Source of the DNA: Octopus vulgaris
Taxonomy: Eukaryota
DNA: 64,000 bases
Direction of reading: 5' to 3'
Assembly (NCBI GenBank): GCA_951406725.2
Contig: OX597829.1
Coordinates: 54,250,001-54,314,000, forward strand
The position numbers and the translations under genes are program-made. Below, piece after piece: positions 18,361-48,049 of this stretch; within the stretch, counting starts at the first letter, position 1, and each line of letters starts with the position of its first letter. The notes under the pieces are model-generated. The model was given only the letters and a program-made list of their open reading frames with translations. It did not search any database and was not told where the DNA came from.

Positions 18361-19217
18361 TCTTTACAATTGTTTTGTAGTCATTTCCCTTCCAACAAAT
18401 CATCTGGACTCAAGGCTGTTACAAAAGATGCCATGCAGTTGGATTGAACTTTGGACTCATGATTGCAAAGGGAATCTCTTCACCAGTTAGTTATATCTGC
18501 ATTCATTAACAGTCAGTAGGTACCATGGTATCACACTCCCAACCAAAGTAAAGATAGTTTGCATCTCATAGTATAATATATCTAATTTGTGTTCCTGACA
18601 TTTAATGCTCACTGACTCATGACACCTAACTTCAAAAATATATATCAGTGCCCCAGCATGGCCACAGCCTTAGGGCTGCTATATATAAAATAATATATTG
18701 TGTGATTGTTTGGTAAGAAGCTTGTTTCTCAACCACATGGTTACAGGTTCAGACCCACTGCGTGGCACCTTGGGCAAGTGTCTTCTACTATAGCCTCAGG
18801 TCGACCAAAGCCTTGTGAGTGGATTTGGTAGATGGAAACTGAAAGAAGCCCGTTGTATATGTGTGTGTCTGTGATTGTCCCCAACCACTGCTTAACAAGT
18901 GGTGTTGGTGTGTTTACATCCCCTGTAACTAAAAATTGTTCAAGGCAGAGCCCCAGCCTGGCCACAGTCTATTGACTGAAACAGGAAGAAGGCAGAAAAT
19001 AGCTGTTGTGAGCAATAGAACTAAAATGTGTCATTTCCTAACGATGTTGAGTTCAAGTTTCCTTTGTACCTAAACTGATGCAACCAGAAACTACTTTCTT
19101 TTTCATGGTTATTCCTGCTGACAAATCTTGGTCTCTTTTTTTCTAATACATTTGACAGCTGGTCTGTATTCAACTATGTAAATTGACGGATATTTGTCCT
19201 CATCTTGTTTGATTTTA

Positions 19218-19261
19218 ACATAACGTTTCAGCTGATATACCCTCCAGCCTTCATCAGATGT
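19218..19261 (-). ncRNA. Type I hammerhead motif, canonical core
   Basis: ACAU-CUGAUGA-a-GGCUGG-aggguaua-UCAGCU-GAAAC-GUU-AUGU. Confidence 0.85.
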
Positions 19262-19413
19262 CTTGGGGAAATTTCAAACCTGGGTTCTCATTCCTAAGGT
19301 ATTTTTCGATGTTGTTATTATTATTATTATTATTTATTATTATTCAGGTCACTGCCTGGAATCAAACTCGGAATTTTCGGCTTAGTAGCCCACACTCTTA
19401 ACCAGTATGCCAC

Positions 19414-19486
19414 GGGCATATGGCGTTGTGGGTAAGAGCGTGGGCTACTAACCCCAAGATTCCAAGTTCGATTCCAGGCAATGACC
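19414..19486 (+). promoter_or_regulatory. tRNA-like Pol III head (boxes A and B); not called as a functional tRNA
   Basis: gggcataTGGCGTTGTGGgtaagagcgtgggctactaaccccaagattccaaGTTCGATTCCaggcaatgacc, 73 nt with imperfect stems. Confidence 0.7.
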
Positions 19487-19580
19487 TGTATAATAATAAT
19501 AATAAATAATAATAATAATAGTAATAATAACATCGAAAAATACCTTAGGAATGAGAACCCAGGTTCGAAATTTCCCCAAG

Positions 19581-19624
19581 ACACCTGATGAAGGCTGGAG
19601 GGTATATCAGTCAAAACGTTGTGT
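19581..19624 (+). ncRNA. Hammerhead motif with G12A substitution (probably inactive)
   Basis: ACAC-CUGAUGA-a-GGCUGG-aggguaua-UCAGUC-AAAAC-GUU-GUGU. Confidence 0.7.
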
Positions 19625-20035
19625 TAACAACAAAGAAGACGAGGACAAATATCCGTCAAATGTAAGTTGAATCATAATTGAACCTAAGTGTGAAACTCCG
19701 TCTTATTTAACATTTGTCAAATCCACAATCTGGTCAGAAGTTGTCTCTCAATTATTTAATCTCTAAACAATTCTGTTTTCCTACCCCAATGGATGTACAT
19801 TTACCATGTGTAGTTAAATCATCATTTTACAAATATGGCAAAAGATAAATGTTGTTCAAGAATTCAAATTTGGAGACATCTCTGCTACACTTTCTAGAAA
19901 AATGGAAAACAATAATTTGTTATTAATATTGTTTTTTTTAATCTGTTTTCAGTTATGGAAGAAAGTTTCATAAGTTAAGCTTTTTGATTTTTGTTTGCAG
20001 AAAAACTCTGAGAGAATTTTCTTGTACATTTTCAG

Positions 20036-20186
20036 GGCTTTACAGTTTCCACCAGAAGGTTGGATGAGAATGAGACTTTATCATGCTAGCATTACATGGA
20101 TTACAATTAAACCGGATGGTAAAGTGTCACTAAAACTAGTTGGAGATGCTGGACATATACCAGCACACAAATTATCATTTTCTTAA
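20036..20186 (+). CDS. PGAM5: PGAM5 terminal coding exon
   Basis: Acceptor cattttcag; phase 2 matches. Encodes ALQFPPEGWMRMRLYHASITWITIKPDGKVSLKLVGDAGHIPAHKLSFS-stop, the typical PGAM5 C-terminus. Confidence 0.95.
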
Positions 20187-34690: not shown

Positions 34691-34778
34691 GTATATATAT
34701 ATATATACCGGAGTAAACACATAAATGTGAAACAAGGTGGAAAAAAGAGTACTCAAATACCAGTGGTAGAGTAATATG

Positions 34779-34936
34779 CTTTATTTTAAGCAGCAGAAAA
34801 TTCAACAAAATCTGTTACTCTGAGTTTCTCGTTGCCGTTCATCAGACAGTTTTTGCTAGCAAAAACTGTCTGATGAACGGCAACGAGAAACTCAGAGTAA
34901 CAGATTTTGTTGAATTTTCTGCTGCTTAAAATAAAG
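34779..34936. repeat. Perfect 158 bp palindrome with a hammerhead on each strand
   Basis: Centre gct|agc at 34857/34858; the arms are exact reverse complements. Confidence 0.9.
34866..34903 (+). ncRNA. Minimal type I hammerhead motif (mirror copy at 34812-34849, -)
   Basis: CUGU-CUGAUGA-a-CG-gcaa-CG-a-GAAAC-UC-a-GA-GUA-ACAG. Confidence 0.8.
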
Positions 34937-35186
34937 TATATATATATATATATATATGCATATATGCATATATATATATGCATATATATATATATATGCA
35001 TATATGCATATATATATATGCATATATATATATATATATATATGCATATATATATATATATGCATATATATATATATATATATGCATATATATATATGCA
35101 TATATGCATATATATATATATATATGCATATATATATATATATATGCATATATATATATATATATATGCATATATATATATATATA

Positions 35187-42697: not shown

Positions 42698-42741
42698 TAT
42701 ATATATATATGCATATATATATATATGCATATATATATATA

Positions 42742-42779
<38 letters not shown>

Positions 42780-42840
42780 TATATATATATATGCATATAT
42801 ATATATGCATATATATATATATGCATATATATATATATAT

Positions 42841-44403
<1,563 letters not shown>

Positions 44404-46300: not shown

Positions 46301-46765
46301 TTAGGGGGATGTGTTTAGAAGTGGTCTGTATTTATTAATAAGGTGGGATTCCATGGTTATTCGCTGGGTATGAGTGGCACTGTCTTTAAATTTGTAGAGG
46401 GGAAAGATTCTAAAATTGGGATGAAGTTGTGCGGCACAGGTATCAATATGTGCACTAAGTGCTATTTTTCTGTATTCCTGTATTTTTATTTGGGATCTGT
46501 GGACAGTCATGCGTTGGCGGAGGCTATTTTTAGTTTGGCCTATGTAGTGTTCATTACAGCCCGAGCAAGTTAAGACATATACTAGGTTTTCTGATGTGCA
46601 TGTGAAGTTGTGTTTTACTGTGAAACATTGTCCTTGTTTAAAAAGGAATTCTGGACCTTCTATTAGGTTGATGCATATACCACAGTTGGGTCTATTGCAT
46701 TTGTTTACTGTGGGTTTAGTTGTTGTGATTGGCAGTACTTTGGCATTTATTAGGATGGTTTTCAA
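46301..46765 (-). pseudogene. GIY-YIG endonuclease of the Penelope-like element (separated from the RT by a stop)
   Basis: Cys linker CNRPNCGIC, then NLVYVLTCSGCNEHYIGQTKNSLRQRMTVH..E..I..LN. Confidence 0.9.
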
Positions 46766-46792
46766 TGATTTCGTGTGTTAGGAGGATTTGGT

Positions 46793-47947
46793 TCATTCTA
46801 GAGTATGGGGTTTCGATGTAACAGGTTTAGGGCGTCTAAGTTCCTGTGTGCTGAGTTTTAGGGCACGTTGGATCCCATTGTCAATTAGTGACGTGGGGTA
46901 ATCCCTGCTTGTTAATGTGTCCTTAAGTTCTTGTAGAGGTAAGAGACGGGTGTTTTTATTGGAGACTATAGTGCAAATTCTCTTGGCTAAGTTGTAGGGA
47001 ATGTTAATTTTAACATGTCTAGGGTGGCATGAATTGAAAGGGAGGTATTGCTTGGAGTCTGTGGGCTTGTAGTATATGTCTGTTTCTATTTTTTTGTTGT
47101 GAATTTTAATGAGGATGTCGAGGAAGGGAATTTGTTGACGGCTGTATTCCATTGTGAAAATAATGTTTGTGTTGAGCCCATTTATAAGGGTGTGAAATTC
47201 TTTTAGCTTCTCGATGGTTTCGGGCCAAAGGATGAAGCAGTCATCAAGATATCTCTTCCAGTTCTTCTCTATGTGTGTGTGGAGAGTGGTGCCAAATTGG
47301 TTAAGAACGTTATTATAGGGAGTGATTTCCAGGTATCCCATGACTAGGTTGGCGTAAGTGGGAGCTGTTTTCGTTCCCATTGCCGTCCCTGATTTCTGTC
47401 TGTAGAATTTGTTGTTGAAGGTGAAGAAATTATTCTCTAAGATGAATTTGAGTCCTTCTAAAATAAATTCCTTTTTGATGCGGTGTGGGAGTTCGTTGGA
47501 GTAATTATCCAGCCAGAATTGGATAGCTTCTATTCCTAGATTGTGGGGGATGTTGGAGTAAAGATTAACTACATCGAATGTTACTAGCAGGGTTTGTTCA
47601 GCAAGAAGTGTATTGGGGAGGTGGTTGAGCATATCTAGATCGTCCCTTATGTAGCTTTTAATGTGTTTGAGGAAGGGCTTGAGAAGGGTATCAATGAAGT
47701 TGCTAAGGCGGTGGGTTTCGCAAGCGGGACCTGCTATTATAGGTCTCAATTTGAGGTCATTTGGTGAGGGGACATTGATTACAGAGTTTGTGGCTTCCTT
47801 GCATGCCTTACTTATTAATTCGCTTTTATGAATTTTGGGAATACCGTAGAAGAGGCTGGTTTTACTAGTGAAATTTGTGATGAAGTTGAATTCTTTGTTA
47901 GTGAGTTCTTCTTTGTGGGGGTTGATCAGGGTTTTTAAGTTTCTCAT
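46793..47947 (-). pseudogene. Penelope-like reverse transcriptase
   Basis: FYGIPKIHK, LRPII, FDVVNLYSNIP, GTAMG, RYLDD, IPFLD, YYKPT, SCHP. Confidence 0.92.
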
Positions 47948-48049
47948 AATTTTCTGTTGATTGTAGTGTTCAGCCTATATATATATATATGCATATATAT
48001 ATGCATATATATATATATATATATGCATATATATATATATATATATATA

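Follow-up and report, generated by a model that had tools for sequence, protein, structure and literature searches.

Background

SINEs are usually regarded as parasites of LINEs, and the Penelope promoters characterised so far are of the Pol II type. Two octopus SINEs, OR1 and OR2, are said to be derived from tRNA-Arg.

The closest described systems are Penelope-like elements (PLEs). According to the accessible parts of the cited papers, on which all our statements about these sources rest, elements of the Penelope/Poseidon kind (anole Poseidon PAc, PMC11167929; Adineta Pen2a, PMC3846280; overview in PMC8557442) have a single ORF of about 840 codons with a reverse transcriptase (RT) and, at the C-terminus, a GIY-YIG endonuclease (EN). 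Their terminal repeat (pLTR) holds the first codons, a hammerhead overlaps the ORF start, and partial tandems occur. Their insertions comprise an inverted 5'-truncated copy, a one-sided tail of 30-40 nt and a short target site duplication (TSD). The octopus element described below is alike in all these respects. Two internal priming sites were shown in vitro for anole Poseidon (PMC11167929). A zinc-finger linker between RT and EN is present in Neptune and Nematis and missing in Penelope and Poseidon (PMC8557442). The promoter of D. virilis Penelope is described as internal and LINE-like (PMC2377424), and in other Penelope pLTRs the 5' ends are defined and palindromic and bear motifs of the Pol II type (PMC3846280).

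Here we analyse a pair of short repeats of Octopus vulgaris that an earlier note, made from the sequence alone, had read as a SINE-like element with its own promoter and a self-processing end, possibly parasitising Penelope. We consider it probable that they are a dead head-to-head pLTR insertion of a 2.66-kb Penelope/Poseidon-type element, whose tRNA-Arg-like module likely is its Pol III promoter.

Organisation of the locus

The window is the whole stretch of DNA analysed, 64,000 nt long. It contains two inverted arms, at 19183-19412 (minus strand) and 19414-19665 (plus strand), with 87% identity across 239 aligned nt. Both arms are organised as the earlier note described them: a tRNA-like head, a (TAA)n run, about 55 nt, the core of a minimal type I hammerhead and a short 3' portion. 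The features are the following.

19168..19180, no strand: left flank, sharing an 8-nt inverted repeat with 19665-19672 and a 6-nt direct repeat with the end of the right arm
19183..19412, minus: left arm, inverted pLTR copy, 5'-truncated (begins at head position 8) and tail-less
19217..19262, minus: left minimal hammerhead, core intact, predicted cut after 19222
19312..19344, minus: left (TAA)n run
19345..19412, minus: left head, positions 8-75, with one substitution each in A box and B box
19410..19413, no strand: head-to-head junction, 4 nt common to both arms (right arm positions -4 to -1)
19414..19488, plus: right tRNA-Arg-like head, A box about 19421-19431 (A14 lost), B box 19466-19475 intact
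19489..19530, plus: right (TAA)n run, 5' UTR spacer
19551..19665, plus: first ~38 codons of the Penelope ORF, ATG at 19551, spanning the linker, hammerhead and tail of the earlier note
19580..19625, plus: right minimal hammerhead, core 19585-19591, cut would fall after 19620
20037..20186, plus: last coding exon of a PGAM5-like host gene, the arm pair lying in the preceding intron

Head positions 1-7 are missing from the left arm, and the full 3' tail of the family, which ends about 50 nt past these arms, is absent from both. The promoter boxes are damaged in both arms. Stem I of the left hammerhead carries a private C-G to T-A change (19258/19221), and the right core carries a G12->A change at window position 19613 and is predicted to be inactive. 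The 6-nt direct repeat in the left flank is a possible short TSD, which overlaps the element's end. No derived variants are common to the two arms.

ARAGORN and Rfam (at gathering score) gave no call in the window, a MIR2606 match merely reflected the hairpin, and neither arm folded better than shuffled sequences. The empty-site joint was not found among the listed contigs of four sequencing runs; the right junction was covered by three. Within the family the locus is atypical, being 1 of the 5 among 55 head-to-head pairs without a clear tail. It is an ordinary dead double insertion, and its insertion pattern is already known.

Transcribed within the PGAM5 pre-mRNA, the pair at 19183-19665 would give a hairpin of ~230 bp, a possible substrate for A-to-I editing; there are thousands of such pairs. 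At 18700-18990 of the window, 200 nt to the left of the arm pair, there is a further abundant short repeat that is tRNA-like and has a different head.

The unit is a terminal repeat

The genome searched comprised 2.8 Gb in about 30 large contigs. One locus (L090) holds a decayed Penelope-type RT and endonuclease ending just before a head (RVT_1 profile match, E=3e-11). When the L090 RT was used as the query, 16 of 30 loci reached the ORF end and 15 of these 16 continued into the head. Likewise, 30 out of 30 loci chosen by the motif just upstream of the head ran into it, some of them being duplicates. In tandem copies the tail continues into the N-terminus of the ORF, and one copy (L334) begins at head position -2 and continues into the ORF.

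A majority sequence was built from 52 segments, its 5' part being thin (about 11-17 segments). The resulting 2.66-kb unit consists of the head (nt 1-75), (TAA)n, an ATG at 119, the hammerhead core (153-188) and the tail end at 283; a single frame of 838 codons starts at the linker ATG and is followed by a stop, 29 nt and the next head. The hammerhead sits in the first 24 codons. From this map it follows that the linker, ribozyme and tail of the earlier note are the first codons of the ORF.

The majority ORF has RT motifs and C-terminal GIY-YIG-type motifs (the endonuclease being read by eye from motifs) and is similar to a Neptune-type ORF by tblastn. No CX2-5CxxC zinc-finger linker was present between its RT and EN, whereas a 781-aa Neptune-type family of the same genome has one. 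We placed the element with Penelope/Poseidon because it has no such linker, a placement made without a tree on the criterion given in the accessible text of PMC8557442. Judged by its sequence, then, the ensemble of head, (TAA)n, hammerhead and tail is the pLTR of a 2.66-kb Penelope/Poseidon-type element. A Penelope with the same hammerhead and tail, which the earlier note had proposed to look for, was thus found, with the repeats flanking its own 838-codon ORF. The suspected reliance on Penelope stands, but not as that of a separate parasite, since the whole unit, head included, is Penelope's own pLTR.

Among the 150 RT matches listed, the longest open frame was 569 aa, so the family looks dead or nearly so. 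A search by GIY-YIG family returned Neptune-type families with other ends, and the tail was present in none of 50 loci and stretches; a neighbouring copy (L156) proved independent.

Family size and composition

With one arm as the query we obtained 3,573 first-look candidates. Exact 19-mers counted genome-wide amounted to 4,735 in the head and 1,022 just upstream of it. As sixty 10-kb stretches taken at round coordinates contained 6 clear loci and one 32-nt fragment, we estimate about 30,000 loci (range roughly 10,000-60,000). The copies diverge by about 4% at non-CpG sites.

The earlier note had asked whether head and ribozyme always go together. In a search with the head only, the body lay within 400 nt at 22 of 30 loci and beyond an inserted repeat, placed after the head or in (TAA)n, at 4 more; no body was found within the fetched flank at the remaining 4. 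The (TAA)n spacer is a frequent landing site of at least 2 other abundant repeats, which split the head from the body (L066, L067, L076, L078, L079, L083, L095).

None of the 6 clear random loci holds the ORF, and short copies make up 90 of the 92 head-start copies in sets not selected for ORF. Genome-wide, the head motif outnumbers the upstream motif by a factor of 4.6, so that perhaps 5-20% of heads are linked to an ORF. In this genome, a large class of "tRNA SINE" copies turns out to consist of Penelope terminal repeats, with consequences for repeat annotation. A SINE name may already exist for the short form, by way of the octopus OK/OR1/OR2 repeats (Ohshima and Okada 1994).

In one sequencing run, labelled as another organism (X18), the body is present with recurrent variants of its own and the head is covered relatively little, which hints weakly at a related family whose head has diverged or is missing. 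A search of sequencing runs with a query copy interrupted after the head gave no RNA run among the matches listed.

The tRNA-Arg-like head and the 5' ends

The head shares 47-49 identities over 73 nt with host tRNA-Arg(ACG) genes, with no gap through the first ~60 nt, which bears out its tRNA-like nature. Arg isoacceptors scored highest among 8 host tRNA types compared, ACG having a small margin over Arg(TCT). The head no longer forms the cloverleaf fold. In the solo short copies, the A and B boxes are intact in the majority sequence.

We then considered where the copies begin. Out of 30 arms with the head motif taken in genome order, 20 begin at -7 to +4 (22 if two ambiguous near-duplicates are counted), 6 begin inside the head and 2 extend further upstream. 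The share of starts expected in this interval, calculated from the truncation rate on the ORF side, is about 2%. The step in read depth at the head is also seen in an independent DNA-like run and in two RNA runs. Of the solo short copies, 32 of 44 reach 2-7 nt before the mature tRNA +1, chance adding a base or so. On tRNA genes, Pol III initiates 2-7 nt ahead of the mature +1. Trimming by RNase P is disfavoured as the source of these 5' ends, only 7 of the 44 solo copies having no extension past +1. The head takes up almost all the non-coding space of the 2.66-kb unit.

From its sequence and position, the A/B-box head likely serves as the Pol III promoter of the element. The 5' pile-up does not by itself name the polymerase, because other Penelope pLTRs have defined palindromic 5' ends too, in the accessible text on them, and a 4-bp hairpin is located at the start site here.

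T runs and RNA reads

The sense strand of the unit contains no TTTT. The expected number is 2.9 when synonymous codons are permuted (P=0.027) and 4.7 with a less strict null (P=0.006); under a Markov null, applied to a draft of the unit that was slightly shorter, P was 0.08. For comparison, Neptune-type ORFs have 8 and an RTE 5. A control LINE ORF in the window is likewise depleted (2 against 7 expected, P=0.009), and G runs are absent from the unit as well. The signal is modest: the lack of TTTT would be compatible with Pol III read-through and is no proof of it. In the two RNA runs, which look unstranded (mates fall equally on both strands), 67-71% of reads enter unlike flanks; these reads gave no pile-up of starts or ends at the head or at the cut, and no Pol III transcript.

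The hammerhead

In the majority sequence the minimal type I core is complete, helices I and II included, and the core is intact in 59 of the 208 copies that span the ribozyme. According to the accessible text of PMC4209133, minimal hammerheads of PLE pLTRs share with it the lack of a helix III loop, the palindromic GAAACGUU, a helix I of 5 bp, a bulged base before helix II and a predicted dependence on dimers; by sequence there is no difference of substance. Lacking helix III, the octopus hammerhead is predicted likely to cut only as a dimer or with protein help.

The two arms of the window had been read as covarying in stem I. Over the 208 copies, this proved to be a double change private to a single dead copy: only the window's left arm has the T-A pair, and 176 copies keep C-G. 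No other pair of stem I or II covaries among the 208, as expected if copies decay neutrally after insertion. The commonest recurrent non-CpG variants in the hammerhead lie at U7 and in loop II, two rarer ones lying in helix II, which is a mild sign of constraint in source copies. Internal 5' ends fall within 5 nt after the cut in 14 of 145 cases, about 3 times the mean, a figure confounded by the palindrome and by deletions. At the other end, a stop near the cut is seen in only 7 of 248 body alignments, and 180 run 40-100 nt further. Ribozyme cleavage therefore does not make the element's end, and the idea of a self-processing end has to be given up.

Insertion scars and 3' ends

The 3' ends form two clusters, at body positions of about 139-158 and 181-189, apparently matching, by analogy, the two internal priming sites described for Poseidon. 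Among 55 head-to-head pairs, one arm is tailed in 47, none in 5 and both in 3. A direct repeat of at least 7 nt flanks 30 of the 55, as compared with 2% for mismatched-flank controls. These counts agree with the earlier suggestion that the inverted partial copy is a Penelope scar. In a same-template test, paired arms had 0.65 derived variants per 100 nt in common, against 0.17 between loci.

Four loci (L323, L327, L328, L340) show a recurrent jump that leaves the ORF at nt about 236 and lands in another copy, either in its hammerhead region or at its head start. Short microhomology in L328 and L340 suggests a template-switch hot spot at this position.

Proposed mechanism and alternatives

Under the reading that we prefer, a Penelope/Poseidon-type element with a tRNA-Arg-derived promoter, transcription would begin just before the head, continue across the ORF and reach into the next repeat. 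Priming by the element's RT would be internal, at two sites lying about 40 nt from each other. If it took place at the first repeat of the transcript, the product would be a ~280-nt SINE-like copy running from head to tail; priming at the next repeat would yield ORF-bearing copies, and two primings at a single double-strand cut would yield an inverted pair. Uncut RNA would be the template, the hammerhead likely needing a dimer or protein help. Against this explanation, a Pol III mRNA would be uncapped and its translation unexplained. In its strongest form, the proposal would be an autonomous coding retrotransposon in which Pol III, acting at a captured tRNA-Arg promoter, makes the whole 2.7-kb, TTTT-free mRNA, and in which internal priming by the RT turns the 5' end of this RNA into tens of thousands of SINE-like copies; we regard this form as conceivable, with the balance somewhat against it.

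Whether the short copies are by-products or a lineage of their own was judged from their variants. A true SINE, self-propagating and with Pol III transcripts that the Penelope RT copies in trans, would be nearest to what the earlier note proposed, and would suit both the large excess of short over ORF-bearing copies (no ORF at the 6 random loci; 90 of 92) and their intact A and B boxes in the majority sequence. Penelope pLTRs are also reported as able to act in trans in the accessible text of PMC3846280. However, variant frequencies are alike in short and ORF-linked copies (e.g. U7->A in 32/177 and 8/56), and no position separates the two classes once the number of tests is allowed for, the ORF-linked sample being 56. 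Source copies peculiar to a distinct SINE family thus left no trace in separating variants. Moreover, the anole Poseidon template needs the ORF beyond the priming site, as far as the accessible text of PMC11167929 goes, and solo copies lack it. For these two reasons the by-product model is preferred, and we judge a self-propagating SINE unlikely.

The tRNA-like segment could instead be a passenger, an old retro-tRNA, with transcription from a Pol II promoter or by read-through and with the pile-up marking a Pol II start or an RT stop at the hairpin. The known Penelope promoters, internal, TATA-less and LINE-like in the accessible text of PMC2377424, would favour such a view, as would a head that no longer folds into a cloverleaf and the modest T-run signal. 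It would leave unexplained why copies start 2-7 nt before the mature +1, the position of a tRNA-type promoter, and why the head occupies nearly all the non-coding space; a pile-up of roughly 30-fold is also poorly explained by a 4-bp hairpin. We hold a passenger to be rather improbable, though a rival to be reckoned with. As for a hammerhead-bearing Penelope stub having landed by chance in a (TAA)n tail that belonged to a tRNA SINE unrelated to it, the same (TAA)n run does receive other repeats, but head and body travel together family-wide, undergo truncation jointly in inverted arms and are present on either side of the ORF. The family data refute such nesting, which the earlier note had named as its own undoing, and we give it next to no credence.

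Other PLE-like features

The window and the genome contain further PLE-like features. A near-perfect palindrome of 168 nt at 34773-34940, between a LINE and a (TA)n run, has two opposed hammerhead-like cores of another family and is probably a fold-back PLE stub. At 42700-44300 there is a large inverted pair, about 90% self-complementary across 1.6 kb, with (TA)n in the middle and divergent hammerhead-like cores at 43147 (minus) and 43859 (plus), belonging to a second, unrelated PLE-type family. A broken Neptune-type PLE ORF with RT and GIY-YIG Pfam matches lies at 46301-47974 (minus) and has 61% identity to the young 781-aa family. The latter (L141-L146, L154) has many intact 781-aa frames, a (TA)n end and a long 3' region with repeated CCAAT- and CRE-like motifs; a pattern search found no canonical hammerhead at its end, and one copy (L154) has an inverted 5' copy. 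Finally, a piece of a further RT type, distantly similar to PLE RTs, was seen at L050:2300-3100.

Comparison with known systems

If the head drives the element, the octopus would offer a natural 2.7-kb mRNA made by Pol III. This would raise the questions of how an uncapped RNA gets translated and what role a hammerhead plays in the first codons. It would also point to a simple route of SINE birth, in which a Pol III promoter stands ahead of an internal priming site.

In our literature search, neither a tRNA-headed PLE repeat nor a tRNA SINE mobilised by Penelope was found described; Repbase, Dfam and bioRxiv supplements lay outside its scope and may hold the family. Similarly, the accessible main text of the 2026 octopus repeat annotation (PMC13282606) has no tRNA-headed pLTR, its supplement and repeat library, also outside the scope, being places where the family may be held.

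The comparisons that follow are again drawn from the accessible parts of the papers. Schistosome Sm-alpha and Sj-alpha (PMC6765202, PMC2770079) have the same succession of a Pol III-type, tRNA-related promoter and a hammerhead, at high copy number. They are non-coding and often in tandem, and their ribozyme was shown to cut multimers, whereas the octopus unit is the repeat of a coding element, with a minimal ribozyme and ends that are not set by the cut. Metazoan non-LTR retrozymes (PMC7761336; bioRxiv 10.64898/2026.07.22.740005) are likewise short non-coding derivatives of PLE pLTRs that bear hammerheads. They form tandem arrays that are said to be promoterless and to proceed via circular RNA; the octopus copies occur dispersed or in head-to-head pairs and begin at a head that resembles a promoter. 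A retrozyme trait, head-to-tail tandems of monomers with hammerheads as their limits, was not encountered among our copies, which were solo or head-to-head with ends away from the cut. Cassandra, Helenus and Ajax (PMC10886601) also carry sequence derived from a small-RNA gene within their terminal repeat, but they are of the LTR class and non-autonomous, whereas the octopus element is a PLE coding for its own enzyme.

The Penelope/Poseidon elements remain the closest known counterparts. The octopus element is unlike them in that ~280-nt copies starting at the head predominate. As far as the accessible text describes them, their pLTR promoters are TATA/Inr-like or TATA-less and LINE-like, and the octopus element has a tRNA-derived A/B-box module in that place. 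The insertion layout has already been published; what is unusual at the family level is this tRNA-derived module at the promoter position of a pLTR.
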